Positions 2,357 through 39,629 of a stretch of DNA of 64,000 nucleotides are shown in pieces. The DNA is taken from NCBI GenBank assembly GCA_965369865.1, contig CBDURU010000002.1:3838-67837 (forward strand). The letters run 5' to 3'. The stretch comes from an uncultured bacterium. GTDB taxonomy: Bacteria > JAJVIF01 > JAPKYR01. The stretch's first letter is position 1, and each line of letters starts with the position of its first letter. The notes beneath the pieces were generated by a model that did no database searches, was not told the origin of the DNA, and saw only the letters and a list, made by a program, of their open reading frames with translations. The position numbers and the translations under genes are program-made.

Positions 2357-4081
2357 TTATTCGGCAAATTCCACCAGGATCTCTTCGATATGCCAACCGA
2401 AATTATACGGCAGGCAGTTGTCTATGTAATCATAAGTGTCAAGTACAAACTCGACCGTAATTGTGGTCCCGTTGTAATCTGTCCCAAGGTTGAAAGTGCT
2501 TTCTGTCCAGTCGTATTCATCGGTCCAGCATTTGATTGGATCGAAAGTCATGGGATAGTAATTATCCTCGTAAGGCGGTCCGCCGGTAGGAAATACCTGC
2601 TCGCCGTTCACACGCACAAAGCACATATCCCAGGCAAAATGACCAAAAAATTCAACCGGGTCGACCTGGATTTCGTGGTTAAAAACAATAATCAGGTCAC
2701 TCGACGATTCCGGTATATCGATCGGCGGTGAGGAAACATAGCTGACGTTAAGATTCTCATCCTGACTGCCAGTATCCTCTTCGAAACATGTTCCATCACC
2801 AGTCACACCACCGGCCGCATGCATAAAGCTATCCAATTTTCCCCACCAGTCCCCGCCATGGGCTACCCATTCATATTCGAAATTTTCGAAATCATCATAG
2901 AAAGGCCAACCGGGAATATTAATGTCACTCTCTACCGATACTTCATGCAGTACATACGTTGCAAGTTCCTGGCCCGGAAGACGCCCGTCATATCCTTCGC
3001 CATCAAGAGCGACAGCCGCCACCAGGACCTCAAATGAATCGGCTGAAGTAAGAACGATATTCTGAACATTCAATTCAAATGTCACGTGATCTCCATTCTG
3101 GAGGGTAAAAGTCATTTCCTGCCTTGGGAAAATTCCCGGGGACTCGATGAAGACCGTATCCTGGTCGGCATTTTCGAAATCACGGACCAGCACCTGGAGA
3201 ATAAGTTCACCCGATTGCACATCTTCGATAAATGACAGGTCATTTTGGAGCTCCACAAGATCGACTCGCCATGGCTCGGTAGCCACGGTTCCCGGCGGGT
3301 AATCATCCGGTCCTTGTGGAGGATTGTTTAGAGGCGGTTCCCAACTTGCAACAACCGCATACTGGAACTGGAAAATTCCCTGGCCATGGAAATCGAATTC
3401 ATAATGCCGCCAGTTCAGATTTCCGGCGAAGATAATCGATTTCATAGACTCATCCAGGTCCATGTTATCGGGCAGAGCAGAGAGCCCATCCGCAAACAGT
3501 TTGTAAGGATTAATTGTGCTCAGAAAATCTCCACCGTTCGGGTTGCCATATTTACCGGGATAGTAATTGAGTATCGTCCCATCATATGGGAATTCAACCG
3601 GGTTCATCCATCGGGTATATCCATCAGCGTTCAAAAGGCGCATTTCATCCGGGCTGGACATGACAATATCAGGATTGGCGAATCCCGACATTGTACCGTC
3701 CGACAGGAAAATTCCGCGAGTAGAGAATATCGTGAACTCAGGAGAACCGGCGAAAGGATGCCAGATTCCCATTTCGAACGACATCTCCGGAGGATTAATC
3801 TGCAAGTTTGAAATAAGAATGGCATTTACATCCGGAGCTTCGAGGAACTTAAGAATGTTAAGTTCAATTTCGACAGATCGATTGGGGATTATTTCAGCCT
3901 GGAGCGTATCCGGGTCGATTATGATGTCGTAGAGCCCCAGTAGATGCGTTCCGGACTGTGAAACAACCCGCGCCGGTTCAACTCCCGGCTGGGTTGGTGA
4001 CTGGGAACCGGAAGATGTCGCACACCCGGATAGCAGTATTGCCGCGAACACAGTGAAACACAATATTTGGATATACCTCAT
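2357..4081 (-). CDS. large secreted lipoprotein, paralogous N-terminal domain to upstream gene
   Basis: Start MRYIQILCFTVFAAILLSGC (lipobox) preceded by AGGAGG RBS. Shares the RLLNADGYT motif with ORF 344..2290. Confidence 0.6.
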   Translation of the reverse strand: MRYIQILCFTVFAAILLSGCATSSGSQSPTQPGVEPARVVSQSGTHLLGLYDIIIDPDTLQAEIIPNRSVEIELNILKFLEAPDVNAILISNLQINPPEMSFEMGIWHPFAGSPEFTIFSTRGIFLSDGTMSGFANPDIVMSSPDEMRLLNADGYTRWMNPVEFPYDGTILNYYPGKYGNPNGGDFLSTINPYKLFADGLSALPDNMDLDESMKSIIFAGNLNWRHYEFDFHGQGIFQFQYAVVASWEPPLNNPPQGPDDYPPGTVATEPWRVDLVELQNDLSFIEDVQSGELILQVLVRDFENADQDTVFIESPGIFPRQEMTFTLQNGDHVTFELNVQNIVLTSADSFEVLVAAVALDGEGYDGRLPGQELATYVLHEVSVESDINIPGWPFYDDFENFEYEWVAHGGDWWGKLDSFMHAAGGVTGDGTCFEEDTGSQDENLNVSYVSSPPIDIPESSSDLIIVFNHEIQVDPVEFFGHFAWDMCFVRVNGEQVFPTGGPPYEDNYYPMTFDPIKCWTDEYDWTESTFNLGTDYNGTTITVEFVLDTYDYIDNCLPYNFGWHIEEILVEFAE

Positions 4082-4565
4082 TAACAGGTCCTCCTGAGAC
4101 CGATCTATGGATATGTGAAGTCTAACCCTATATTCGTATCGAAACCCCACCGACCCATTCTTACATACCAATCAAACTGGTCCATCACCGAAAGTCCGAA
4201 GGAGGCGGGAGCCTCATGGTATCCGTTCGAGAGGGTCAGGAGACAAAAATAATGATAACATATGTAGGAAATTCAGTCCATTATATTGATATATCCTTTC
4301 AGCATTAATCATATCCTGTGCCGGAAAACCGGATAATCGTACTGACTTCCCTGCCTCAAATAATTTAACCGGAGGGGAGTCAGCTTGACACTTGTATTTC
4401 AATATGTTAAAAATTCCTGTTCGCGCGGGGGTGAATATATCAACCTGCTCGAATACAAAAATTTGCGAACCTTTTGATGCTTTCGTGTGTCAGAAAATCA
4501 CTGAGGGCATAATTTTTAAATCGAGATTAAAGGAACCAAAACGGTAAGGGAGACAGATCCCAGCA

Positions 4566-5516
4566 ATGATCGAAGTTAAAAACCTATTCAAATCGTATGG
4601 AAGCACAAAGGCGGTTGACGACATTTCCTTCACGATTAACAAGGGAGAGATCGTGGGGTTACTTGGTCCTAACGGCGCGGGTAAAACCACGGCCATGCGG
4701 ATACTCACCTGCTATATCTCGCCTGACTCGGGTGAAGCGTCAATCGGCGGTTACAGTATCCTGAACCAGTCACTGGACGTTCGGAGGATAATCGGGTACC
4801 TTCCCGAAGCCGCACCACTTTACCAGGAGATGAATGTTGTGGACTACCTTGGGTTCATAGCCGATATCCACGGACTCGGGGTAAAAAAGAAATCCCGTAT
4901 AGAAGAGATGATCGATATAACCGCGCTGAACGAGGTAGTGTTCAAGGATATCCACGAGCTTAGTAAAGGTTACCGTCAGAGGGTCGGACTTGCAACCGCG
5001 ATGATCCACGATCCGGAATACCTGGTTCTCGACGAGCCTACCACGGGGCTGGACCCGAACCAGATTGTCGAGATAAGGAATCTGATTCGCGAGATCGGGC
5101 ACGACCGGAACAAGTGTGTCATGCTCTCCACGCATATCCTTCCCGAGGTCGAAGCCACATGCGACCGTGCTATAATCATTGATGAGGGTAAAATTATCGC
5201 TGAGGGCACTACAACGGAGCTGTCCGGGTTCGCCCGTGGATCGGATGTCTATCATGTCGGGGTCGTCGGTAACGCGAATATCGTGGAGTCAGCAATAAAA
5301 TCTCACGAAAAAATCGCGGATTTCAATTTGAGAGAGGACCTTGGGGAGAATCGTCTTATCTATGACATCACATCCAACTCGGACCAGGACATTTCCGAGG
5401 AGATATTCGATATGGCAGTAAAGTCCGGATTTAAGCTTACCAGGCTGACACGTGAAACCGCCAGCCTTGAGGATGTATTCCGGACCCTTACAACAAAGGA
5501 GGTGAGGGCAAAGTGA
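4566..5516 (+). CDS. gldA: ABC transporter ATP-binding protein (GldA-like)
   Basis: Walker A GPNGAGKTT, ABC signature LSKGYRQRVGLA, Walker B LVLDEPTTGLD. First gene of an ABC-2/GldG cluster. Confidence 0.85.
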   Translation: MIEVKNLFKSYGSTKAVDDISFTINKGEIVGLLGPNGAGKTTAMRILTCYISPDSGEASIGGYSILNQSLDVRRIIGYLPEAAPLYQEMNVVDYLGFIADIHGLGVKKKSRIEEMIDITALNEVVFKDIHELSKGYRQRVGLATAMIHDPEYLVLDEPTTGLDPNQIVEIRNLIREIGHDRNKCVMLSTHILPEVEATCDRAIIIDEGKIIAEGTTTELSGFARGSDVYHVGVVGNANIVESAIKSHEKIADFNLREDLGENRLIYDITSNSDQDISEEIFDMAVKSGFKLTRLTRETASLEDVFRTLTTKEVRAK

Positions 5517-6250
5517 ATCGAGTAGCACCAGTATTTCAAAGGGAGCTTTCGCAGTATTTCAACTCACCGCTCGGTTTTATTTACATCGATGTATTCCTGC
5601 TATTGACCGGGTTTTTCTTCTTCGAGCTGTTTTCGTTTTTCCTCGCGGAACAGGCGTCCATGAGAAACCTGTTCCAGCTTTTACCGTGGGTTTATCTATT
5701 TTTCGTGCCCGCGATCTCTATGAGGCTTCTTGCTGAAGACAAGAAAATTGGAACCGTAGAAGTGCTGATGACATTACCGCTCAGGGACTGGGAAGTTGTC
5801 CTCGCTAAATATTTCGCGTCATTTGTTTTCCTTACTGTCGCACTTCTCCTGACATTCCCGCTGATCCTTGTCGTGAAGCAGGCCGCAACACCAGGGGTTA
5901 TCCTCGATTACGGCCCTGTTTTCGGCGGTTACATCGCCGCTATTTTAATGGGCGGTGCGTTTCTCGCGGTTGGTATATTTTTCTCCAGTTTAACCGACAA
6001 CCAGATAGTCGCGTTTATTCTATCCATAGTCACGATGGCGGTTTTCCTGTTGATCGGAATTCCGAATATCGCTGGAATTTTCCCTCCGGGGCTGCAAAAA
6101 TTCGTTCTCAATATCAGCCTTATCAGTCACTTCTACTCGGTCGAGCGAGGGGTAATCGATTCGCGTGACATGCTCTACTACCTGTCGGTAATCTTCATAT
6201 TCCTGTTCGCCACGATCCGCATGGTGGAAAGCCGGAAGTGGAAGGCGTGA
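5513..6250 (+). CDS. gldF: ABC-2 family permease (GldF-like)
   Basis: GTG start overlapping the upstream stop, with perfect AAGGAGG RBS. Six predicted TM helices. Sits between the ATPase and the GldG-like gene. Confidence 0.75.
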   Translation: MNRVAPVFQRELSQYFNSPLGFIYIDVFLLLTGFFFFELFSFFLAEQASMRNLFQLLPWVYLFFVPAISMRLLAEDKKIGTVEVLMTLPLRDWEVVLAKYFASFVFLTVALLLTFPLILVVKQAATPGVILDYGPVFGGYIAAILMGGAFLAVGIFFSSLTDNQIVAFILSIVTMAVFLLIGIPNIAGIFPPGLQKFVLNISLISHFYSVERGVIDSRDMLYYLSVIFIFLFATIRMVESRKWKA

Positions 6251-6265
6251 TGGAGGCTAAAAGAA

Positions 6266-7939
6266 ATGCGTAAAGCCGCACAAATATCACAGAACACAAT
6301 AGAAATAATTATCATAATCGGGATTGTGATTGTCCTAAACATACTCGGGCAGTATTTCTATGCACGGTATGACCTGACCGAAGACAAGATTTTTACCCTC
6401 GCCCAGTCATCGAAAGATGTTGTATCCGAACTTCCGGACCTGGTTCACCTGAGAGTGTATGTCAACGATGACCTCCCGCCAACGCTCCAACCCGCCGATC
6501 AGCGGTTAAGGGACCTTCTTGAGGATTACAGGGCCTCGGCATCGACAAGGCTGGTCATCCAATACATTAATCCGGGCGACCTTGACGAAGGGAAGATCGG
6601 GTCACTCTCGATGAAAGGCATCCAATCGACCCAGGTACAAATCACACAAGAGGATGAATTAAGTATCCAGGAAGTGTGGATGGGCCTTGAGATTTCCTAC
6701 CTCGACGCCTACGAGGTCATCCCGTTTGTCCCGACTGTCCGTAATCTTGAATACGAAATAACCTCCTCGATTTTAAAATTAATCAGTGAGGATACACCGA
6801 CAATAGGCTTCCTTACCGGTCATGGTGAGATGGCGACAGAGGGTTCGCAGTATGCGCAGGCAGCTTACGGCGCATTGGCCGAAATTCTTAAGGAACTTTA
6901 TATCGTCACCGATGTCGACCTCGGCAACGGACAGCATGTAGCCGATAATATAGACACACTTGTAATCGCCCAGCCATTGGAGCTTTTTACGGACCGGCAC
7001 AGGTATGTAATCGACCAGTTCGTCATGCGGGGCGGTAAACTTGTGGTGCTGGGCAGCGGTTACGAGGTAGACCAGATGACCGGTGATGAACTCACATTCA
7101 AAGCATTCCCGCTCGACGGTCTGCTTGCTGATTACGGAATAAGGATTAATAACGATGTTGTAGTGGACCTGCAATTCAATCATAAAATTCCGATGCAAAG
7201 GGGACCTTTCCAGATTTTAATAGATTACCCTTTAATTCCCATCATTTCACCACCGGAAGGATTCCCGTCCGACAGTCCCGTAACTCGCGGCCTCAACCAG
7301 CTTTTCCTGCCGTACGTAAGTTCGTTAACGCTGCTCTACGACAAGATTCCCGACGATATGGAAATTTTCGAGCTGGCGAAATCCAGCGAGGGATCATATT
7401 CAAAAACAGTTCCGGTTGTAGTCGATCCAAACCAGGAGTTCATGCCGCCCGGAGGCCTGGATGACCTGAAACATCAACTGGTCGCGGTTCAGTTGAGCGG
7501 GACATTTACATCCGCTTTTGAAGGCGAAGCAGTTCCGGCATTCGATCCCGATCCGGAAGCCGAAGAAGGCGCAATTCCTGAAATGGACGACCAGGAAATG
7601 CTGGTCGCCAGTGTTCCTACTTCAATCACGGTAATTGGAAACGCCACATTTGTCACCGATGACGCGATCCAGGCTCCCGGTAACGCGGTATTCTTCCAAA
7701 ATCTGATGGAAACGTTAAATATTGGCGATAAATTAATCGATATCAGGACCCGGACTGTCAAGAACCGGCCACTCGACCCGGACCTTACACCCGCTGACAA
7801 GAATGGTCTCAGGTTCTGGGGTTATTTCTTTGTACCGATCCTGATTACAATTCTTGGAACCGCACGGTTCTATCTCAAGGGCCAGCGGAAAAAACTCCTG
7901 CAGGCTATTCAAACGGCCGAAAAGGAATCCGGTAAGTAA
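6266..7939 (+). CDS. gldG: GldG-like ABC transporter auxiliary protein
   Basis: N-terminal TM followed by the YDLTEDKIFTLAQSSKDVV motif typical of GldG. C-terminal TM and size 557 aa fit the family. Confidence 0.75.
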   Translation: MRKAAQISQNTIEIIIIIGIVIVLNILGQYFYARYDLTEDKIFTLAQSSKDVVSELPDLVHLRVYVNDDLPPTLQPADQRLRDLLEDYRASASTRLVIQYINPGDLDEGKIGSLSMKGIQSTQVQITQEDELSIQEVWMGLEISYLDAYEVIPFVPTVRNLEYEITSSILKLISEDTPTIGFLTGHGEMATEGSQYAQAAYGALAEILKELYIVTDVDLGNGQHVADNIDTLVIAQPLELFTDRHRYVIDQFVMRGGKLVVLGSGYEVDQMTGDELTFKAFPLDGLLADYGIRINNDVVVDLQFNHKIPMQRGPFQILIDYPLIPIISPPEGFPSDSPVTRGLNQLFLPYVSSLTLLYDKIPDDMEIFELAKSSEGSYSKTVPVVVDPNQEFMPPGGLDDLKHQLVAVQLSGTFTSAFEGEAVPAFDPDPEAEEGAIPEMDDQEMLVASVPTSITVIGNATFVTDDAIQAPGNAVFFQNLMETLNIGDKLIDIRTRTVKNRPLDPDLTPADKNGLRFWGYFFVPILITILGTARFYLKGQRKKLLQAIQTAEKESGK

Positions 7940-7984
7940 TCTATGCTGTAATAATATGGAGTTTCCCGCGGGATGTGATTCGAG

Positions 7985-9190
7985 ATGAACTTTACAAAAT
8001 TAACAATAATGGTAGTAATCCTGGGAGTTCTGCTGATCCTGGTCTGGAATCTCCAGAAAAAGGATATAGACGAGCGCAGGCAGCAGAGAGCGATAACGAC
8101 AGCCCTGCAATTTCCGGACCTCAATACCGATGAAGTCTTCAGGCTGGAGGTAAGCAGCCTTCAGAACGAGAGCCTTCTATTCAGGAAGGAAGCCGGGGAA
8201 TGGGAAATTGCGCGAGGTAAAAATATAATGAGCGATTTGATGGCGCAAAGCACTGAAGAAGGCGAGGAACCGGTTGTAAATCCAGCTAACGACGTTGGCC
8301 CGGCGGGTGACCGGTTCAGGACTTTCTACCGTGCCAATCCCGATAAAGTCATGGATATGATATCCGCGATCGCGGAAATGCCTACCGGCAACCTGGTGAC
8401 ATCGGATACTGAGAAACAAAGCACCTTTGGAGTACTGAACGCAATAGTAGGTACGGAAGTTGTGCTCTATGACGAACAGATGAATGAAATCGCTAACCTT
8501 ATTGTCGGTAATATGGGGTCGACCTTCCAGACTACTTACGTCAGAAAACCCGAATCCGACGATATTTACGAGGTGCCGATCGGCCTGTCAATGACCTTTA
8601 ATACACCGATTATCAACCTTCGCGACAGAAATATTTTTTCGTCAGCACCTGAGACAATAACTTCGGTTTCGATAAATGATATCGAGGGTGAGGGCGTATT
8701 GACAATGAATCTCGAACGTGCCGATGGAACGTGGGTTGGTACTGACTTTACCGGTACCGAGCTTCCAATCGAAATTGAAAAAATCGACATTCTCCTGGAA
8801 GCACTCGGTAATCTCAGCGCGAATTCGTTCGTAGACATGGAACGGCCACCGGTCGCATATGATGAACCTGAGACCGACGACCCGTACGGGGTTCTGAATC
8901 CCGGCAGGATTATTGAATTCACAACCACCGACTACAGAACCCACACTCTGATAATTGGAGATGAGGATGGATCGACATTTTATGCAACCGTCGGTGATTA
9001 TCCCGATGACATATTCAGGATATCATTGAGTGTGTTGAATAAAATATCCCCATTACCGGAAAGCCTGGATCCGGAATATGTTGAGCCGGAATCGACCGCA
9101 CCGACTTCTATTGATCTTACCGGAGATAATCCAGCACTGAGCCAGGATATGGAAATCCCTCCGGAGGTCCTGGAAGAACTGGGATTGTAG
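7985..9190 (+). CDS. DUF4340-like membrane-anchored protein
   Basis: N-terminal TM helix, about 400 aa. Conserved position downstream of gldG as in GldAFG-DUF4340 operons. Confidence 0.45.
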   Translation: MNFTKLTIMVVILGVLLILVWNLQKKDIDERRQQRAITTALQFPDLNTDEVFRLEVSSLQNESLLFRKEAGEWEIARGKNIMSDLMAQSTEEGEEPVVNPANDVGPAGDRFRTFYRANPDKVMDMISAIAEMPTGNLVTSDTEKQSTFGVLNAIVGTEVVLYDEQMNEIANLIVGNMGSTFQTTYVRKPESDDIYEVPIGLSMTFNTPIINLRDRNIFSSAPETITSVSINDIEGEGVLTMNLERADGTWVGTDFTGTELPIEIEKIDILLEALGNLSANSFVDMERPPVAYDEPETDDPYGVLNPGRIIEFTTTDYRTHTLIIGDEDGSTFYATVGDYPDDIFRISLSVLNKISPLPESLDPEYVEPESTAPTSIDLTGDNPALSQDMEIPPEVLEELGL

Positions 9191-9235
9191 TAATTATTGA
9201 GAACGGGTAAGGCATCAAATCTTTTGGACTTACAA

Positions 9236-9261
9236 CCAGGGAAAATCACCCTGGTTTTTTT
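9236..9261 (+). terminator. intrinsic terminator
   Basis: Hairpin CCAGGGAAAATCACCCTGG followed by TTTTTTT immediately after the 7985..9190 stop. Confidence 0.7.
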
Positions 9262-9343
9262 GTATTATATTATAAAATAGACATTATCAGGCAATTTATA
9301 CCATTTAGACCAATTCCGTTGAATAATTATTGATTCGAGATCG

Positions 9344-9383
9344 GGGACATCTCTTTTCGCCCGTCGAAAAGCAGGTGTCCCCC
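9344..9383. repeat. GGGGACA...TGTCCCC imperfect palindrome (repeat family 1 relative)
   Basis: ggggacatctcttttcgcccgtcgaaaagcaggtgtcccc, in the convergent intergenic region. Confidence 0.5.
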
Positions 9384-9495
9384 TTAATTCTAAATATATC
9401 CAATCAATTTTTATTTAACCGGATTGGTCTTAATAATTAGATTCCACGGAAATTTATTAATAATTTGTCAATAATAGTAAAGTGTTGGGCAATAT

Positions 9496-10662
9496 TTAAA
9501 GTCGTGCAATCTCACCAGCGGTTATTAATCCCAGGTGGTGCATTCGTTCTTCGAGCAGCTCCGTTGCATAGATACTACTATTCTCCGTCAGTTGTATCAT
9601 CGTTTTCTGCGCGATCGAACGTGACGGGTCGATATTCCCACTACCCTTTAATTTATTCCGGCTCGTGGATTTGAAAACCTCGGCTCCAAGTTTACTCATC
9701 ACTTCGTTAACCGGAATGCCCTCCCCGACCGCACCGCGTATGAATATCGCGTTTTCAAGCCTCAGAGCATGCGGGAACCTGTCGAGCCAGGGATCTCCTG
9801 AACGCTGATCGTCGGTAGCGTCATCGATCAACTCACGGTATTTAAGCGCACGGGCCTGACCGATGATATAGGACAGGTTCTCACGACCCGGTTCGCGTGA
9901 GTGGATCACGAAAAAGATATTATCTCCCGATCTGACACCCGTCGGACGGCGGCCATCCGGGAACCGGATCAATTTATAAGCGTTTCTCTGTAAAGCCCAG
10001 ATTCTTACCGGCATAAACGGGTTGACCCGGTCATCGGATGTTCCGTGGAATGTCCACCATGACGCCTGCCCGCGCCTGGCCTTTCTTTTCTTCGGACCCC
10101 GGCGTTTATCAAATAATGTCAGGGCGGCCAGTTCGATACCGCCCGTTTCCCCGCCGGATTCGCGATCGTCATCTGACACCGGTTCAATTTCGTCCAGCCA
10201 ACGGCGAATTAATCGAAGGCGCCGCAGGCTGAAATACGAACCGGCACGCCGCCAGATTTTATCGGCAAGCGAGAAAATATCCCTGGAGTCCGCCCCCTTG
10301 ATAATCATCGGGCACTGCCATTTCCCGGATCCCCGTCCCCAGTCAGCAGGCAGAAATACTGATCCCGATGGCGGCGCGGTAAGCAAAGAAGGCAGAACCT
10401 CATGTTCAGTGACACGGATTTTCACACCGACTTTGGTTAGCCGGATCAGGCTATCCACCTGCCTTATTGTAGAGGATGGTCCCGGTCCGTAGAGAGAAGT
10501 GACGAGCCTGAATTTTCGGGACCGCTGTCCAGTCTGAACGATGAGCTGGTCGAGAACCTGGATTTCGGGAAGAGATGGAATCACAAGCGTAACCGGGTCC
10601 GAACCGGTTTTCACGACGCGGGAAAACAAATCACCGGTTGTACCATGGTGAAGTTCAACCAT
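9496..10662 (-). CDS. hypothetical protein (388 aa), compositionally atypical (R/G/P/S-rich)
   Basis: Long ORF with no recognisable catalytic motif. Flanked by AT-rich intergenics and palindromic repeats. Confidence 0.45.
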   Translation of the reverse strand: MVELHHGTTGDLFSRVVKTGSDPVTLVIPSLPEIQVLDQLIVQTGQRSRKFRLVTSLYGPGPSSTIRQVDSLIRLTKVGVKIRVTEHEVLPSLLTAPPSGSVFLPADWGRGSGKWQCPMIIKGADSRDIFSLADKIWRRAGSYFSLRRLRLIRRWLDEIEPVSDDDRESGGETGGIELAALTLFDKRRGPKKRKARRGQASWWTFHGTSDDRVNPFMPVRIWALQRNAYKLIRFPDGRRPTGVRSGDNIFFVIHSREPGRENLSYIIGQARALKYRELIDDATDDQRSGDPWLDRFPHALRLENAIFIRGAVGEGIPVNEVMSKLGAEVFKSTSRNKLKGSGNIDPSRSIAQKTMIQLTENSSIYATELLEERMHHLGLITAGEIARL

Positions 10663-17010: not shown

Positions 17011-17241
17011 TACGAAATAGAGAAAATTAATATAATATATCGTATAATCCAATTTTTATTTATTATTTTGTGCTATATAGTTGCATTTTTAGGTCTAATC
17101 ATTTATAATTCTTATGTACAAGGCAAAATACCCTCAAATGAGGATATTTTCAGTATATAGTTGTCAAGGGTTGACAAGGGTTATAAAAGGTTTTATATTT
17201 CTAAAGCGTCAGTTTGTAGTTGACGCAATCGATAATTAAAA

Positions 17242-17314
17242 TGCGCCTGCCGGGAGTCGAACCCGGAGCTAATTGTGAGCTAGACAATTGCTTTATCCGT
17301 TAAGCTACAGGCGC
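17242..17314 (-). tRNA. tRNA, anticodon loop CUAGCUC (anticodon AGC by position). Atypical
   Basis: Reverse complement folds as a cloverleaf: acceptor GCGCCUG/CAGGCGC, D-stem GCUU/AAGC, anticodon stem AUUGU/ACAAU, T-arm CCGGG-UUCGACU-CCCGG, 5-nt variable loop, A73. Confidence 0.75.
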
Positions 17315-17790
17315 ATGTTTATCTAAAACGCCTCTCGCCTATCAGCTTAGGGCGTTTGTATTCATTGATGATGGCTAGAATCGAACTCCAGCCACCACCA
17401 ATTAAGTTAACGACTCATATGAGTCACGTTGAAAGTCCGCTGGAGAGGCTCACGATAAGTGAACCCCTCCGTTTGACTGTCAATGTTCATTTAAATGCCC
17501 CTCATGATTTGATCGTCCGGGGGGTATTTCTTTCTGCATTCTAAGATACACGACACAAAAGGAAAAATCCACTTTTTTGTTTCAACAAAATTCAACACTT
17601 GATAGGCGGTTCAATTCGATCCGGTTCTGGGGGGATATCAATACCCGAATGAGTAATGAATTATTTGGCAATACTTATGGGTTTGTCAAGTGAATAGTTC
17701 CGATAAAATATTGATTCATATCAGGCACTCCCGTTACACTGGTCTCGGACCGCTCGCTGACGATCGCGGCTCCGATACGGTATTCCCTGG

Positions 17791-33079: not shown

Positions 33080-34216
33080 TTGCCAGCAATCATAAAAAAA
33101 ACTTACAATACCGGCATGATTCAGATCAAAATCCGGCAGAATGCAGTCTATTGCTTAATCGCCATCCTAATTTATTTTTTATTAATCCCGTATCCGACCA
33201 GGGCGACAACTCTCTCCGAAGTTCTTGTGGGGATCTACAACGCCCGAAATCCAGCGAGCCTATCTTCGCTTTCGTTTCTTGGCGACATGCGTCTCGATCT
33301 TGACGATGAACAGGGCGCGATGCTTCCGGCCCAGATCAGCCTGCTTGCCGCGTGGCGAAGCCCCGATGAATGGTACAGCACTTACGAAATTTCAGGTGAG
33401 ATCGCTACCGGGATGAGGGGAATCGGTTACTCGCATCCGGCTGTTGACCAGATGATTCTAAGCCGTCCGGACTTTCTCGATGTCCTTGATATAGTCTGGA
33501 CAGTGCAGTACCAGGGTACAGCGATGTGGGACGGGGAACCCGCCTGGAAAATTCTTTTTAACACGCGTGACATAACGCTCGATACACCGCCGTTTACGCT
33601 TTATGTCCGGAAGGATGATTTTGTCCCCCTGAGGACACAAGTAGAATTTTCAGACGGCACCACCGCGATCACCGACCTGAACTGGATCGTGACCGACGAT
33701 GTTTTGCTGCCCTCGAAATTTACGACAACTTTTAACCCGCCGATCGGCCCTTTAGCGGGATATGAAACAACCTGGTTCAATCATGAGATCAATCCTGATT
33801 TATCGGACATTGATTTTCCGCGCGAGGAAGGGTCTTTACTAAGCGGCAACGATCCCGATCTGGACGATGGCCCGGCGGTTTTCGAGGAGCTTTACCACGG
33901 CTTCGCGGATGATCCGATTATCGCGCCGATCAACGATTCGTCCGGAACATATGACCGGTTAAGTTTTACATTCAGCCTGTATGTCGAGGACGATTCAATT
34001 CCCGGCCAGTTGGATTCAAGGCAGATAGCTATCCGGAATCTCGCGATCGATATAATTTCTGACTGGGATTGGTCGGGTGATAACGGATTGAGCATGCCCG
34101 GCGGGAAATACGAGTGCGGAAAGGAAATAGTCGGTGCGATCGGAGAACTCCTCGGAACCGACTCGATAACGGATTTTTATTTCCTCGACTGGGAACCTAT
34201 TGAATCGGGGGAGTGA
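33080..34216 (+). CDS. membrane-anchored hypothetical protein (third gene of MoxR operon)
   Basis: N-terminal TM, acidic C-terminus. Confidence 0.45.
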   Translation: MPAIIKKTYNTGMIQIKIRQNAVYCLIAILIYFLLIPYPTRATTLSEVLVGIYNARNPASLSSLSFLGDMRLDLDDEQGAMLPAQISLLAAWRSPDEWYSTYEISGEIATGMRGIGYSHPAVDQMILSRPDFLDVLDIVWTVQYQGTAMWDGEPAWKILFNTRDITLDTPPFTLYVRKDDFVPLRTQVEFSDGTTAITDLNWIVTDDVLLPSKFTTTFNPPIGPLAGYETTWFNHEINPDLSDIDFPREEGSLLSGNDPDLDDGPAVFEELYHGFADDPIIAPINDSSGTYDRLSFTFSLYVEDDSIPGQLDSRQIAIRNLAIDIISDWDWSGDNGLSMPGGKYECGKEIVGAIGELLGTDSITDFYFLDWEPIESGE

Positions 34217-34423
34217 CTCCAATAATTCAAAAATTATTAATCCGTGTGGCCGGATTTTTCATTTCAGCAACCCATTTCGATGGCAAGGATCTGGTAAAGA
34301 CCGCGGGATGTCGAATCGTCGGGTGGCATGATCTAGATTTGCGGATTGGGGATATGGTAGCAGATTATTGAATAAGAGATAATATTTTTTATCGATGCTC
34401 TTTAAGCCTAAGTCACCTTGTTT

Positions 34424-36457
34424 TTACAACCTTTTATTAATTTCATCAATTAAGCTTTTTGCATTGTGCTCACTAACTCCATTGTATTCTGAGATATCAG
34501 TTTGGGAATCAATATCTACTGTTATTTGTTTAATAATTTCTTTTTTATTCAGTTCCTTACCAAGCATCGCAAAGAACCGTTTATTTTTTGCAACTATACT
34601 ATCATCTCCCTTAAGTTCAGCTTCATATTGCTCGAATTCATAACCAGCGACCTTCATCTCCTGTTCATGAACCTTGTACACATACTTATTATAATATCCT
34701 TCTTGAAATATACTTTCTAGTTCTGGCTTATCATCATCAGTTTCAATGATTGACTCTATGCTAATAACTGATAACAGTTGCGAATTAATTTTTTCTTCTA
34801 GCTCATTATTTAATTTTTCTTTCGCTTCAATTCCCGCATTATCTGAATCAATCAAGACAACTACATTTAATTTTTGACCCAGCATGAATAAACACAATTT
34901 GAAAATATTACCAGTTCCACATGCGGGTGTGATAAATATATCACTAAGCAACCCAGGTTTTCCTGATTTTAATAATAGGTTTGACAAAGCATTTAGGATC
35001 CAGAAATCCTCTATACCTTCAACGATTAGGTTTTTCTGAGAAACAAGAAAGCTTTGACTTGCATTCATACCCAACGCAGCCTGTAAAACAAAATTCCTAT
35101 TGCTTTCCTCTGAAATTAGTTTATCTGTGGTTTTTGATCCTTCTTTAGTCATTTCAACGACTTTAATGTTTAGTGGATCCTTTAAATCCACCATAAATGG
35201 CGAGTGCGTTGAGATTATCATTTGGTTTTTCTCTGATTGCGTCTTTAAATATTCAAGTAAGTCCCCTTGCCAGTCTGGATGCAAATGCAAGCCTGGTTCA
35301 TCGAGTAGCATGAAATAGTTGTTGCCTAAATATTTTTGCCCATGAATTAGCAAAAGAAATGAAATTAAATTTTGTGTACCAAAGGACATTTCTGACAAAT
35401 TTGTATTGGTTTCGTAAAAAGGAGAGTCCTTATTGACACTGGTTAAATCAAAATCTATATTATCCCCATCAGCTATTAGATTCACATTATGCTGTATATC
35501 AAATCCACCGCGATCCATCAATGATTGTATGACTTTTGATATTTTTCCATACTCTAACCTTCTTCGGCGACGATGTTTAAATTTTATGATTTCTGATGGG
35601 TCCTTATTTGCAATACTCGCTATAGGTTGTAAAATTGGTTGCCTCTTTGATTTTATTTGAAATCGTTCATCTGGATCCTGCTTTGTTTCATCACCATCCT
35701 TTGCCAAGTTCCCACTGCCTGCGTACAGAGGGATATCAACCATGTAAATAATTCTTGGCAATAAATCGTATATAAAATTATGAAATGGTTGAGGTAAGGA
35801 TTTAATATCACCAATTTGTTTTGCATAGGCATTCATTGTAGTAATTATGCTTGTAAAGTACATATCCGCTTCCGCACTACCTTCATTCATCCTCAGGAAT
35901 TGTGCCCGCTGTCCATTAAACTTACTAAGGGTAGTATTAAATAATTGTATTCTTATATCACAACCAAGCCTAATCACTGTGTCTATAAGACCTATAGTTG
36001 AATCATCAAAATTAAAATCATTAAATCCTTTAGATAATGGTGTTTCTAGCGACAATGGCGTTATATCTGGGGAGTTAATATCTATATCCTTATCAATATC
36101 GTCAGTTACTGCATGAATTGTTAAAAAACCATCATTATTACGAATCACCAAAACTTCATTCAAAGGATTAGAAATATTGCCTAATTTTATTACTTCTTCT
36201 AGCTCCTCATCACTCAATTTAAATATAGCAGAAACTTTAGGTTTTAGATCATCTTCGAGCCGGCTAGTCCTTGTATAAGAATGCTCTGGAAAATAGGTTG
36301 GGATTGTTAATGATGGGTTTAACATACATAATGCTTCAAGGTGGGCTGACTTCCCACTTTGATTAGGACCAACGAAAACAGTGAAATTTCTGATATCAAC
36401 CCATCCAGAATCTATTATACATTTGTAATTCTGAATTCTGAATTTCTTCAATTTCAT
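34424..36457 (-). CDS. OLD-family ATP-dependent endonuclease (ABC-ATPase + TOPRIM), class 1
   Basis: FRIQNYKCI start. Walker A GPNQSGKS, Walker B LLDEPGLHLHP, H-loop ISTHSPFMVD. C-terminal TOPRIM NLIVEGIEDF ... VVLIDSDNAG. Gene is about 30% GC against about 50% in flanks. Confidence 0.7.
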   Translation of the reverse strand: MKLKKFRIQNYKCIIDSGWVDIRNFTVFVGPNQSGKSAHLEALCMLNPSLTIPTYFPEHSYTRTSRLEDDLKPKVSAIFKLSDEELEEVIKLGNISNPLNEVLVIRNNDGFLTIHAVTDDIDKDIDINSPDITPLSLETPLSKGFNDFNFDDSTIGLIDTVIRLGCDIRIQLFNTTLSKFNGQRAQFLRMNEGSAEADMYFTSIITTMNAYAKQIGDIKSLPQPFHNFIYDLLPRIIYMVDIPLYAGSGNLAKDGDETKQDPDERFQIKSKRQPILQPIASIANKDPSEIIKFKHRRRRRLEYGKISKVIQSLMDRGGFDIQHNVNLIADGDNIDFDLTSVNKDSPFYETNTNLSEMSFGTQNLISFLLLIHGQKYLGNNYFMLLDEPGLHLHPDWQGDLLEYLKTQSEKNQMIISTHSPFMVDLKDPLNIKVVEMTKEGSKTTDKLISEESNRNFVLQAALGMNASQSFLVSQKNLIVEGIEDFWILNALSNLLLKSGKPGLLSDIFITPACGTGNIFKLCLFMLGQKLNVVVLIDSDNAGIEAKEKLNNELEEKINSQLLSVISIESIIETDDDKPELESIFQEGYYNKYVYKVHEQEMKVAGYEFEQYEAELKGDDSIVAKNKRFFAMLGKELNKKEIIKQITVDIDSQTDISEYNGVSEHNAKSLIDEINKRL

Positions 36458-36580
36458 TTTGCGACCACCTCAAGTTTTATTATTAATTCAACCCATAGGA
36501 TGATGAGTTCCAATCGTACTAACGAATCTATAATTTAACAGATCTTCAGGACAGAATTTAGTATATCTTCTAGGTATGCC

Positions 36581-36877
36581 TTAAATTGCCGGGGCATACT
36601 TCACCTCATTCATGATTGAATCACGGAGACTTGGCTTGATCGTATCGGGCAGAACCAGATCAACTTTCCTGCCGACCAGATCCTCAAGGAAAAATTTCAA
36701 TCCCATGTACGCCCTGAATGTTTCATTCTCAAGCTCAACAAGGAAATCGATATCACTGTCAGGAGAAGCATCGCCACGGGCAATCGATCCGAAAATCCCG
36801 AGCTTCCGCACACCAAACTTCTTTATCTCAAGCTGGTGCTTCTCAATGAGGTTAAATATTTCTTCAAGCATGGTCAT
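36581..36877 (-). CDS. minimal nucleotidyltransferase (MNT/MntA-like)
   Basis: 98 aa, GSIARGDASPDSDIDFLVE (GS-x9-DxD pol-beta NTase motif). No HepT/HEPN partner adjacent. Confidence 0.75.
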   Translation of the reverse strand: MTMLEEIFNLIEKHQLEIKKFGVRKLGIFGSIARGDASPDSDIDFLVELENETFRAYMGLKFFLEDLVGRKVDLVLPDTIKPSLRDSIMNEVKYAPAI

Positions 36878-37031
36878 TGCGATTAATGATTATACACTGA
36901 GATTTCACTTAACGTCAGCCCTAATCCCTATTCTCCTCTGCACTTTCGCTTGAGGTGACAAAATGGCACCTCAAGATTTCCCATTCTTCCTCAATATAAC
37001 AAATCCTTTTCCGGAAAGAATTCCACTCCTT

Positions 37032-38423
37032 TTATGGATACATGCTGCCTATTGTTCTCGGGAATGGGATGCACTCACGGACTGAATGTACTCCCGCGAG
37101 CCAGGCGACAGTCCTCTCCACTCCAAGTCCGAATCCGCCGTGCGGGTTGGTGCCGTATTTCCGTAAATCGAGATACCACTTGAACGCTTCCATCGGGAGT
37201 TCGTGCTTTTTGATCTGCGCGACAAGAAAATCATGGTCCTCCGCACGCTGCCCGGCGCCGATGATCTCCCCGTACCCTTCAGGCGCGAGCATGTCGACCG
37301 ACATGGTCGTGCGCTCGTCATCCGGATCGGGCTTCATGTAGAACGCTTTGATGTCGCGCGGGAAATGGTGGACAAAAATCGGACGGTCGTACGGCATCGT
37401 CAGTAACGTTTCATCCGGCGCGCCAAACTCCCCACCCCATTCAAATTCGGTACCGAGATCTTCAATTTCGCGCTTTATCTCAGCCTGGCGGGTCTCATCG
37501 CCGGTGGTTTTCAATTCACCCTCAAGCTCAGCAATACGTTTCGGCTTGAGTTCATTAAGTTTTATCACCGCATCGTCATAGTGCATTCGTATGAACGGTA
37601 CTTTTACATTTTCAAGGAATGAAACATCACGCCCGACAATCTCAAGCTCTGGCCGGCATTTTCGGAGAACCCACTCGATGATGTACATGGTCATCCGTTC
37701 CATGAGTTCCATGTTGTCCTCAAGGCTGAACCATGCGATCTCAGGTTCGATATGCCAGAATTCGGTGAGGTGGCGACGGGTTTTCGATTTTTCCGCACGG
37801 AAGGACGGCCCGAACACTACGATTTTCCGGTGCGACATAGCGCCGACTTCGCCATAGAGTTGCCCGGATTGCGACAGGTAAGCGATATCATCGAAATACG
37901 GCACCTCGAAAAGGTCGGATGTCCCCTCGCAAGCGTTCGGTGTGAAAATCGGAGCGTCGAACGTGATATATCCGTCCTCGTAGAAAAATGTTCGTATCGC
38001 GTGGATGACTTCGGACCGAATTCGCATCAATGCCCACGGGCGCTTGGATCGCAGCCACAAATGCCGGTGCTGGAAAAGGAATCCGGTCCCGTGATCTTTC
38101 GGCGTGATCGGGTATTCACTCGCGATCTGTACGATTTCCACACCACCGGATGTCACATGGAGCTCATACTCGTCCTTCTTCGGATGTTTCGCGACTTTGC
38201 CTGAGATCCGTAGCGAAGATTCCTGTGTGAGCGATCCGGCTTTCTCCCAGGTGTCTTCGTCAACATCGTTGATCCCGACAATGGCCTGGATGATGCCCAT
38301 TCCGTCGCGGATTTCAAGGAACTTGAGTTTCTTGCTTTCGCGTTTATTGTAGAGCCAGCCCGTGAGAGTGACTTCCCGGTCAACAAACTGTGAAATCTTG
38401 TCGATTGTTGTTTCGGTCGGCAT
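37032..38423 (-). CDS. asnS: asparagine--tRNA ligase (could be non-discriminating archaeal-type AspRS)
   Basis: 463 aa class IIb aaRS. N-terminal OB fold, motifs 1-3, C-terminal GGFGLGVERTVAW. Confidence 0.75.
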   Translation of the reverse strand: MPTETTIDKISQFVDREVTLTGWLYNKRESKKLKFLEIRDGMGIIQAIVGINDVDEDTWEKAGSLTQESSLRISGKVAKHPKKDEYELHVTSGGVEIVQIASEYPITPKDHGTGFLFQHRHLWLRSKRPWALMRIRSEVIHAIRTFFYEDGYITFDAPIFTPNACEGTSDLFEVPYFDDIAYLSQSGQLYGEVGAMSHRKIVVFGPSFRAEKSKTRRHLTEFWHIEPEIAWFSLEDNMELMERMTMYIIEWVLRKCRPELEIVGRDVSFLENVKVPFIRMHYDDAVIKLNELKPKRIAELEGELKTTGDETRQAEIKREIEDLGTEFEWGGEFGAPDETLLTMPYDRPIFVHHFPRDIKAFYMKPDPDDERTTMSVDMLAPEGYGEIIGAGQRAEDHDFLVAQIKKHELPMEAFKWYLDLRKYGTNPHGGFGLGVERTVAWLAGVHSVRECIPFPRTIGSMYP

Positions 38424-38503: not shown

Positions 38504-38974
38504 TTAGTTTAATTCATCGTGCACAAGGTGTGGATGCTTCTCCTTTAACCATGCAATGACAATCTTCTCTAACTCAATTACTATTTCAGCCAATTCCTCG
38601 ACTTCTATATCACTCACCACTGTTGGTTCCCAATCATACCTGAGATTATGTCTTGTCTTTCTGAAACTATCAAGTACATTTGCGAGCTGCTCAACACCGG
38701 TGCCTAAAAAATGACGGAATCCTGTCACTGCTGCTTCATGATGCCCCCCAGCCTGAGTCACCCAGCCTTCAGCACGCAATACTAATTCGCACCACATCAT
38801 CGCAGCATCATAAAAACCTTTGAACTGACCATATACAGTCTGGCCGGACACACTTGCGTCTTTAGCGGAAATCAGTGTGCCCTGAATGCGGTTTGATATT
38901 TCCCGCCTTGTCGGGTCTACCCGCCTGACAGAATTGTCAACCAGTAATTCGTTCCAATCTCTCATTATCACCAA
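38504..38974 (-). CDS. HEPN-domain protein (putative toxin of HEPN/MNT pair)
   Basis: 156 aa, all-helical, FRKTRHNLRYD (R..H..Y HEPN-like motif). Overlaps the upstream NTase gene by 38 nt. Confidence 0.5.
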   Translation of the reverse strand: MVIMRDWNELLVDNSVRRVDPTRREISNRIQGTLISAKDASVSGQTVYGQFKGFYDAAMMWCELVLRAEGWVTQAGGHHEAAVTGFRHFLGTGVEQLANVLDSFRKTRHNLRYDWEPTVVSDIEVEELAEIVIELEKIVIAWLKEKHPHLVHDELN

Positions 38975-39629
38975 CTAAAAAAACTTTTTGTGTTGACATT
39001 AACGAACGTACAAAATGATCATTGTTTTCGTACTTTTCCTTCCAAATCCCAGGAGTATAGACTTTATAATCTATCTGCCGGTTAATCCTCTTCTCAAGAT
39101 CGGAAATTTCCTTGCTTAATGACCGTTTTGATTGATGACCAATGAAAACAATGTCTATGTCGCTCTCAGATCTTTGAGTCGAGGTGGCAAAAGACCCATA
39201 GACAAAAACACAATCTATGCTAATTAGCTTATTCATCTCTTCTTTGAGAATTCCAAGGCTACCGATGGCATGTTCAAATATCATTCTCAGACCAGGGATC
39301 CAGGGATGTGTCTGCTTCAGCCGGTATGGATAACGCAAAGATTTTTTTAAATCATTTGAGATATGAGGTTCAAGTAACCCCATTATCCAGAGTTTAGTCA
39401 TTTGTTTATGTAGAGCACTTTGACTACAACCAGTAAGTCGCTCAAGGTCACGGGAACCTAACCATTCCTTAGGGCGTTTGATGTACTCCCAAAGAAGTTT
39501 AACACGCACTGAAGACCCAAATAACACAAACAGCTCCTTTTTGCCAGGGTCTCCTGCAGGCTTAACTTCGTCATTTGAATTTTCCAAATTACGATTATTT
39601 GACCTCATTATACGATCATTATAAGCCAT
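38937..39629 (-). CDS. winged-helix + nucleotidyltransferase domain protein (MNT partner)
   Basis: wHTH segment LERLTGCSQSALHKQMTKLWIMGLL, NTase motif VFVYGSFATSTQRSESDIDIVF. Confidence 0.6.
   Translation of the reverse strand: MAYNDRIMRSNNRNLENSNDEVKPAGDPGKKELFVLFGSSVRVKLLWEYIKRPKEWLGSRDLERLTGCSQSALHKQMTKLWIMGLLEPHISNDLKKSLRYPYRLKQTHPWIPGLRMIFEHAIGSLGILKEEMNKLISIDCVFVYGSFATSTQRSESDIDIVFIGHQSKRSLSKEISDLEKRINRQIDYKVYTPGIWKEKYENNDHFVRSLMSTQKVFLVGDNERLERITG

Follow-up and report, generated by a model that had tools for sequence, protein, structure and literature searches.

Class 1 proteins of the OLD family, whose anti-phage function has been described (PMC12392090, PMC10568477), are encoded by single isolated genes, as in phage P2 Old, Thermus scotoductus OLD (TsOLD; structure 6P74), Vibrio cholerae Vc OLD, and Escherichia coli YbjD. 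Gabija GajA (class 2) and PARIS AriA/AriB (class 4) likewise join an ABC ATPase to a TOPRIM domain. In HepT/MntA (type VII) toxin-antitoxin systems, such as the class I HEPN/MNT pair SO_3166/SO_3165 of Shewanella oneidensis, the antitoxin is a minimal nucleotidyltransferase (MNT) that bears the GSX10DXD signature of MntA (PMC7641770). Here, we analyze a locus in which an OLD-family gene and an MNT gene are direct neighbors, within a 64,000-nucleotide stretch of contig CBDURU010000002.1 from an uncultured bacterium (hereafter, "the window"). A preliminary description of this locus proposed that the two genes may form a new two-gene defense module or, alternatively, that the OLD gene displaced the toxin of a HepT/MntA pair.

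The OLD-family ATPase-TOPRIM gene (34424..36457, minus strand, 677 amino acids, recognized from its open reading frame and domain matches) lies downstream of mntA (36581..36877, minus strand, 98 amino acids, recognized from its open reading frame and a match to NTP_transf_2), and a gap of 123 nucleotides (36458-36580) separates the OLD start from the MNT stop, in agreement with the preliminary description. We conclude that, very probably, an OLD cassette overwrote the toxin half of a resident MntA/HepT pair, that the chance landing site of the cassette made neighbors of the MNT and OLD genes, and that the locus exemplifies ordinary turnover at a defense hotspot.

Replacement of the hepT toxin gene by an OLD cassette

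The arrangement that preceded the OLD gene is preserved in relatives, whose loci we denote by numbers. In L085, a much closer relative with 88 to 94% nucleotide identity to the window, both flanks of the locus are present: window positions 36955-36542 align with L085 positions 4323-4736, and window positions 34214-29164 align with L085 positions 5094-10162 (blastn). Between these two matches, L085 carries the remainder of an intact 113-amino-acid HepT (PF01934, with the RX4HXY motif) and a 70-bp spacer, and it has no OLD gene. Therefore, window positions 34215-36541 replace 357 bp of the ancestral arrangement, namely, the intergenic spacer and all of hepT from its nucleotide 57. The replacing segment is a foreign, AT-rich cassette of 2,327 bp that has no counterpart in L085 and that is delimited by the blastn break points 36542 and 34214, the alignments, and base composition, with the low-coordinate junction placeable only between 34215 and about 34232. 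In L002, the gene order is FAD oxidase, smpB, a nucleotidyltransferase gene, further genes, asnS, MNT (83% amino acid identity to the window MNT), and hepT, again with no OLD gene. The L002 HepT is intact (112 amino acids, PF01934), and the nucleotide homology of the window to L002 ends at 36541, 19 codons into hepT. In both relatives, the MNT ortholog is followed by a HepT that bears RX4HXY, and the two reading frames overlap by 17 nucleotides.

The window retains a trace of the replaced gene. Nineteen homologous codons of hepT, encoding MPRQFKAYLEDILNSVLKI, run from an ATG at 36597 down to 36541 and continue into a foreign TGT TAA (Cys-stop), which gives a relic at 36535..36597 on the minus strand. 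Like an intact hepT, the relic overlaps the mntA stop by 17 nucleotides. Its peptide corresponds to HepT amino acids 1-19 and is identical to the L085 HepT at 16 of the 19 positions (E = 4e-8). Because Pfam scans of 20- to 46-amino-acid relic peptides and of the translations of 34217-34423 found nothing, the relic is identified by its homology to L085 and L002, at the nucleotide level and by tblastn. By tblastn, the window holds no other HepT, there is no RX4HXY-bearing HepT beside the MNT, and no 3' remnant of hepT lies downstream of the OLD gene in 34217-34423, where the matches are noise (≤15 bits). Thus, the reported absence of HepT holds for an intact gene, although the preliminary description missed the 19-codon relic, and the displacement of the toxin by the OLD gene, one of its two proposals, is borne out by this relic and by the empty-site allele of L085 with its precise junctions.

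The ancestral locus consisted of asnS, optionally an ORF6N gene, mntA, and hepT, followed by a gene for a 366-amino-acid protein, a DUF58 gene, and a MoxR gene, and its mntA and hepT formed an ordinary class I HEPN/MNT (type VII) pair. In the lineage of the window, a 2.3-kb foreign cassette with a single gene, that of the OLD protein, took the place of the downstream spacer and of hepT past its first 56 nucleotides. The toxin thereby lost its RX4HXY RNase core, whereas mntA was spared. With only 19 hepT codons left and the RNase motif gone, the locus, unlike a HepT/MntA system, is no longer a toxin-antitoxin system.

Base composition separates the cassette from its surroundings. The OLD gene has a GC content of 0.336 and a GC content at third codon positions (GC3) of 0.279, while GC and GC3 are 0.528 and 0.629 in asnS, 0.504 and 0.573 in the gene on the other side (378 amino acids in its longer form), and 0.517 and 0.576 in the DUF58 gene; neighboring host genes overall range from 0.50 to 0.53 in GC and from 0.53 to 0.63 in GC3. 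No other 2-kb stretch of the window has so low a GC content as the OLD gene (z = -7.0 relative to all 2,034-bp segments outside it), which is also the strongest outlier of the window in tetranucleotide profile. The composition is thus not uniform once measured; the OLD gene is foreign in origin, and the recent horizontal acquisition proposed for it is upheld. In contrast, the MNT gene is host-like in composition (GC 0.451, GC3 0.525). The AT-rich islet, which had been placed at 34230-36900, is therefore the nuclease cassette alone: its low GC content relative to flanks of 50 to 53% and its lower end near 34215 stand, and its upper part has to give up the resident MNT gene, which lies outside the islet.

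MNT and OLD genes as neighbors in other genomes

A conserved association of the two genes was looked for with a hidden Markov model of the MNT, built from 120 homologs, against all open reading frames in the surroundings of OLD-family loci, 80 of them genomic (6 kb to either side) and 22 viral (4 kb). None of these 102 loci has a lone MNT adjacent to the OLD gene. An MNT-like reading frame occurs anywhere in the flanks of only four loci, being adjacent to the OLD gene in one (L018) and 1.4 to 4 kb away from it in the other three. In L018 (Dehalococcoidia metagenome-assembled genome OY282385.1, 5180-5924), an intact 121-amino-acid nucleotidyltransferase and an overlapping 130-amino-acid HEPN protein are encoded directly upstream of the OLD gene, which illustrates that toxin-antitoxin modules and OLD genes merely share islands. 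Conversely, members of this MNT subfamily accompany an intact HepT and no OLD gene in L002/3, L085, L110/111, and L113/114, and they stand beside unrelated cargo in L001 (a PDC-M11A-type gene), L087 (a type II methylase/endonuclease/Vsr set), and L115 (gid/trmFO). We therefore rejected a shared origin of the MNT and OLD genes, given their GC3 values (0.525 versus 0.279) and the occurrence of the MNT without OLD in L085, L001, and L002.

The window MNT has the fold and the catalytic motif of an MntA. It matches NTP_transf_2 (PF01909; E = 8e-18) and structure 1WOT (E = 4e-11), and its GSX10DXD motif is intact (GSIARGDASPDSDID; GS-IARGDASPDS-DID). Against the NCBIfam MntA_antitoxin equivalog model it scores 48 bits and does not reach the cutoff of 60, and it matches the PADLOC single-gene candidate PDC-S09 (E = 8.5e-33), a lone small nucleotidyltransferase with no demonstrated defense role in the libraries used. 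The ratio of nonsynonymous to synonymous substitution rates (dN/dS) of the MNT gene is 0.05 to 0.09, similar to that of asnS (0.07), which indicates purifying selection. Lone MNTs of this subfamily, comparable to PDC-S09 and to orphan antitoxins, recur beside defense genes (L001, L087) or housekeeping genes (L115); the window MNT differs in that its orphan state is directly traceable to the loss of a toxin. The MNT is thus an orphan antitoxin of resident origin and no partner of the nuclease.

Classification and predicted structure of the OLD protein

Among 5.8 billion proteins, the nearest relatives of the OLD protein share only 31 to 34% identity with it. They belong to a large family of ~670-amino-acid proteins found in many phyla, on viral contigs, and on plasmids. 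The genes next to these relatives are heterogeneous, with restriction-modification genes, such as type I/IIG components (Methylase_S, Eco57I), being the most frequent, and there is no recurrent helicase, reverse transcriptase, or separate TOPRIM partner among 100 immediate neighbors. Beside the OLD gene of the window, we likewise found no UvrD/PcrA/Rep-like helicase, reverse transcriptase, AriB, or separate TOPRIM gene. With neither a helicase nor a reverse transcriptase as its partner, the OLD protein falls by the gene-context definition of the literature into class 1, the single-gene OLD proteins, and it is a new, divergent member of the stand-alone OLD nucleases. It is ~90 to 150 amino acids longer than the described class 1 proteins, and the structurally characterized OLD proteins have very low sequence identity to it. 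Moreover, reviews call class 1 genes isolated, away from other defense genes, whereas relatives of the window gene often adjoin restriction-modification genes. In loci L008, L009, and L020 of Poribacteria metagenome-assembled genomes (about 2592-5940), a protein of ~1,115 amino acids is encoded 57 to 58 bp upstream of each OLD homolog.

The domain searches agree with this classification, in that AAA_15 (E = 2e-25), AAA_21 (E = 8e-17), and PADLOC Old (E = 2.8e-27, amino acids 374-650) were matched, as NTP_transf_2 was in the MNT, and in that OLD-like_TOPRIM, which stayed below its cutoff in the window protein (see below), was found in 13 of 14 relatives at E < 1 (best, 3.8e-6). In an alignment of 36 sequences of relatives, the Walker A residues G30/G35/K36, the Walker B residues D386-E387, and the H-loop residue H418 are invariant, and so are the TOPRIM residues E480, D484, D537, D539, and E581, of which D537 and D539 belong to D537-S-D539 and E581 belongs to [E/A/S]579-x-E581. 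In pattern and spacing, the TOPRIM acids agree with the ligands of TsOLD metal A and metal B, E377/D381/D431/D433/(S478)/E480, which were defined experimentally (PMC7049728); this is a match of E377/D381/D431/D433/E480 with E480/D484/D537/D539/E581 by pattern and spacing, with no residue-level superposition. By alignment, the OLD protein thus keeps all predicted catalytic residues of its ATPase and TOPRIM domains, in line with the preliminary description.

Fold comparisons lead to the same class. TsOLD 6P74 is the top PDB match both of the family profile (E = 4e-14) and, by Foldseek, of the AlphaFold model of the full protein (predicted local distance difference test score [pLDDT], 71). As in class 1 proteins, an N-terminal ABC ATPase precedes the C-terminal TOPRIM domain; a helical insert of ~200 amino acids (150-320), which may correspond to the dimerization domain that class 1 proteins have inserted in the ATPase, is predicted at low confidence (pLDDT, 40 to 70). 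A model of the C-terminal 216 amino acids (pLDDT, 89) matches small TOPRIM proteins and 6P74, and it matches over its full length the C-terminal region of the class 2 protein BpOLD (6NK8; template modeling score, 0.45 to 0.50). The profile of the C-terminal domain by itself had no match among PDB sequences, and these matches came from the fold comparison alone. Common to the ~670-amino-acid subfamily is a helical domain at the C terminus (amino acids 590-677; window positions 34424-34690), which is predicted with good confidence and in which N637-K638-G639 is near-invariant. TsOLD has no such domain, while class 2 BpOLD has one of similar fold, yet the subfamily's genes stand alone. K638 may be the counterpart of BpOLD K562 or of TsOLD R487.

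Strain-variable cargo and erosion of hepT in relatives

The place of hepT is occupied by different DNA in different relatives. In L001, hepT is truncated at nucleotide 63, 7 nucleotides further than in the window (nucleotide 56), and is followed by DNA different from that in the window. The truncations in L001 and in the window look independent by sequence comparison, because L001, although truncated, has the intact L085 allele and not the window as its closer relative: the synonymous divergence (dS) of the MNT gene is 0.11 between L001 and L085 and 0.38 between L001 and the window, and the first 57 nucleotides of hepT are identical in L001 and L085 and differ from those of the window at 9 positions. 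Directly after the cut hepT, L001 (648-1457; Logan ERR10503145) encodes a protein with a PIN-like N terminus (MKFLIDTNIF...) that matches PADLOC PDC-M11A (E = 5e-88), and the contig ends inside this gene.

Other members of the MNT subfamily show further states of erosion. L112 (3281-3379) has an in-frame internal deletion of hepT that joins MSREYENDLHD to ELPGLRDGLEQIILDL..., and L115 (1310-1348) has a 12-codon hepT relic followed by gid/trmFO and an integrase gene. In L087 (6280-6415), there is no hepT relic; the break is at the mntA stop, and a C5-methylase/restriction endonuclease/Vsr set begins 121 bp downstream. The GSX10DXD motif is kept in all orphan MNTs of the subfamily. Where hepT is broken within its first ~20 codons, 19, 21, 11, and 12 codons remain; in this small sample, the clustering of break points may come from selection, from allele recombination, or from a targeted process.

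Similar to defense hotspots such as the P2 old locus and E. coli defense islands, the slot has conserved flanks with strain-variable cargo between them, which among sister strains comprises HepT, OLD, PDC-M11A, and ORF6N/PDC-S05. The position of old in P2 is also occupied by other defense systems (PMC10568477). The slot differs from these hotspots in being tiny (0.4 to 2.3 kb), in lying outside any recognizable prophage, and in having no integrase. It is, in sum, a small strain-variable defense hotspot with cassette turnover and toxin-first erosion, an ordinary and familiar picture.

The conserved flank at high coordinates, upstream of mntA, is asnS (37032..38423, minus strand; asparagine-tRNA ligase, NCBIfam, 490 bits). 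That at low coordinates is the conserved hypothetical gene for 366 or 378 amino acids (33080/33116-34216, plus strand), convergent with the OLD gene and followed by the DUF58 gene and then MoxR-type ATPase genes. Between asnS and mntA, a 42-bp remnant of an ORF6N gene (PADLOC PDC-S05; 36950..36991, minus strand) marks another eroded gene, which is present as a fragment of 42 to 58 bp in the window and L001 and is intact at the same place in L085 (3810-4373; PDC-S05, E = 1.3e-58). On the other side of asnS, the interval between smpB and asnS is also strain-variable among the window, L085, and L002, and it is a second variable slot because L085 and L002 have different genes there. In the window, this interval (38504-39629, minus strand) encodes a 230-amino-acid winged helix-turn-helix nucleotidyltransferase (PADLOC PDC-M05A, E = 2.9e-31) that overlaps a 156-amino-acid protein (PDC-M05B, E = 1.4e-18; no Pfam match). 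This is a second nucleotidyltransferase/HEPN-like pair, and its GC3 values are low (0.35 and 0.43).

Within the cassette, a leader upstream of the OLD gene (36458..36540, minus strand) contains a Shine-Dalgarno-like GAGGTG. A terminator-like hairpin with T-runs on both strands (34239..34256) lies between the convergent OLD gene and 378-amino-acid gene; its folding energy is unexceptional. A promoter-like site upstream of mntA (CTGACG-18-TATAAT; 36889..36918, minus strand) is a consensus match only. Terminator prediction gave none in the interval between mntA and the OLD gene, an Rfam scan had no matches near the islet, and a tRNA scan found none near it, the sole tRNA gene of the window being at 17241-17315.

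Alternative explanations

The proposal that the MNT and OLD proteins constitute a functional two-gene defense module, for example one in which the nucleotidyltransferase modifies or licenses the nuclease, can draw on the co-orientation of the two genes 123 nucleotides apart with no predicted terminator between them, on the catalytic motif and purifying selection that the MNT retains although its toxin is gone, and on its match to PDC-S09. We nevertheless consider it highly improbable and rejected it, as the 80 genomic and 22 viral loci show no conserved MNT-OLD neighborhood (an outcome that the preliminary description had set as refuting), the only adjacent MNT, in L018, belongs to an intact nucleotidyltransferase-HEPN pair, the GC3 values of the two genes are discordant, and the same MNT pairs with HepT in L085, L002, L110, and L113 and stands beside unrelated cargo in L001, L087, and L115. 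The adjacency itself is explained by the hepT relic. A scenario closer to our own has the same ingredients in two events, namely, an internal deletion of hepT (amino acids 20-89) and a later insertion of the OLD gene just past the hepT stop, which would move the high-coordinate edge of the cassette from 36541 to near 36465. L112 shows exactly such an in-frame deletion, and in the window a colinear peptide just after the relic stop, IIDSLVRLELIILWVELIIKLEV (36534-36466, minus strand), has a BLOSUM62 score of 32 against the last 23 amino acids of the L002 HepT, whereas among 23-mers of the same composition drawn from the cassette, 0.8% score that high anywhere and none of 498 do so in the C-terminal register (empirical P < 0.01). 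On the other hand, the peptide scores only 7 to 17 against the HepT proteins of the closer relative L085, of L113, and of L110, and the underlying DNA has 46% in-frame nucleotide identity, no DNA alignment, no Pfam match, and an AT-rich, cassette-like GC content of 0.365. Positions 36466-36534 may thus be a diverged 3' remnant of hepT or a chance match in AT-rich sequence; we regard the two-event history as unlikely, and if it were true, the conclusion on the MNT would be unchanged. Besides this peptide, several points weigh against a single replacement by a foreign OLD cassette as we describe it. No recombinase, repeats, or target duplication account for the insertion: the cassette has no recombinase gene, and its ends have no terminal inverted or direct repeats and no target duplication, with short repeats at chance level. 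With no donor and no close OLD relative (best, 34% identity), the cassette ends are set only by loss of homology. The contigs used for comparison come from metagenome assemblies, and when JGI metagenome contigs were scanned for exact matches to the mntA/hepT junction pattern, there were 0 hits and hence no further alleles. Finally, the Pfam model OLD-like_TOPRIM (PF20469) scores 17.2 bits on the full-length OLD protein and 20.1 bits on its C-terminal domain and does not reach its gathering cutoff of 23.2, so that this part of the anticipated domain assignment was not recovered.

Another reading makes the protein a Gabija-like enzyme or a PARIS-like fusion (class 4, AriA-AriB) in place of a stand-alone class 1 OLD, and it would then act on tRNA or need a partner encoded elsewhere. 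PADLOC models of GajA, AriA (E = 5e-26), and AriAB (E = 1e-18) match it partially, full-length GajA structures align with it by Foldseek, a PDB search with the single sequence returned ATPase segments of AriA and PtuA as best matches, and the best full-length superposition of the C-terminal domain is that on the class 2 BpOLD region, including the helical domain that TsOLD lacks (PMC7049728). We consider this identity improbable, however, because the AriA and PtuA matches, which we set aside despite their top ranks, extend over no more than generic ABC ATPase motifs, the match to AriAB (amino acids 355-492) ends before the DxD motif, and all of the PADLOC matches to these systems are weaker than that to Old. 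In addition, 13 of 14 relatives carry OLD-like_TOPRIM in the C-terminal domain, where no AriB-type domain or structure was among the matches; the best PDB match of the family profile is TsOLD; and neither a GajB/UvrD-like helicase immediately downstream nor a reverse transcriptase or separate AriB gene adjoins the window gene or recurs beside its relatives. The early break points in hepT could, in turn, mean that defense cassettes use the 5' end of the gene as a site-specific integration target, since two different cargos join hepT within 7 nucleotides of each other, in events whose independence is implied by the MNT dS values, and since the relics of L112 and L115 are short, too (11 to 12 codons). 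Yet no integrase, repeats, or conserved cassette-end sequence was found, the break points differ from one another, that of L087 lies at the mntA stop, and the sample is small (n = 4 to 5); if partial toxin fragments are selected against, or if alleles are replaced through homologous recombination in the flanks, early truncation is likewise to be expected. We consider such a target improbable. A related idea, to which we give similarly little credence, is that the orphan MntA is a selected, reusable landing pad, in which purifying selection keeps antitoxin and promoter while different defense cargo (OLD here, PDC-M11A in L001, and type II restriction-modification in L087) repeatedly takes over the toxin position immediately past the mntA stop, inside the first ~20 hepT codons; targeted recombination or MntA-dependent control of the cargo could underlie such a pad.

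Proposed function and significance

Under the preferred reading, in which the OLD cassette overwrote hepT, we propose that the OLD protein is active and would work alone, like class 1 OLD proteins. Its ABC-type ATPase module may sense, or be licensed by, an infection cue, and its TOPRIM domain would nick or degrade DNA by two-metal catalysis, with E480/D537/D539 and D484/E581 as the likely metal ligands. By analogy with P2 Old, TsOLD, and Vc OLD, such DNA damage could lead to restriction of the phage or to abortive infection. Because no terminator was seen in the 123-nucleotide gap, transcription of the OLD gene probably begins at the predicted mntA promoter or reads through from it. The orphan MntA, in turn, is probably kept by selection for a benefit independent of HepT, most simply immunity to incoming HepT-bearing elements (anti-addiction).

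The main value of this analysis is a correction: the MNT-OLD pairing is a by-product of toxin overwriting and does not belong in catalogs as a candidate two-gene defense system. The locus provides a clean natural before-and-after pair of alleles, one with an intact HepT/MntA and one in which an OLD cassette has taken the place of the toxin. The locus shows toxin-first erosion of toxin-antitoxin modules, and it shows small chromosomal slots swapping defense genes without visible mobile-element machinery. The ~670-amino-acid OLD subfamily is widespread and uncharacterized, and it combines the stand-alone genes of class 1 with a class 2-like C-terminal helical domain. The protein is, therefore, well suited to the question of whether OLD nucleases encoded by one gene provide defense by themselves.

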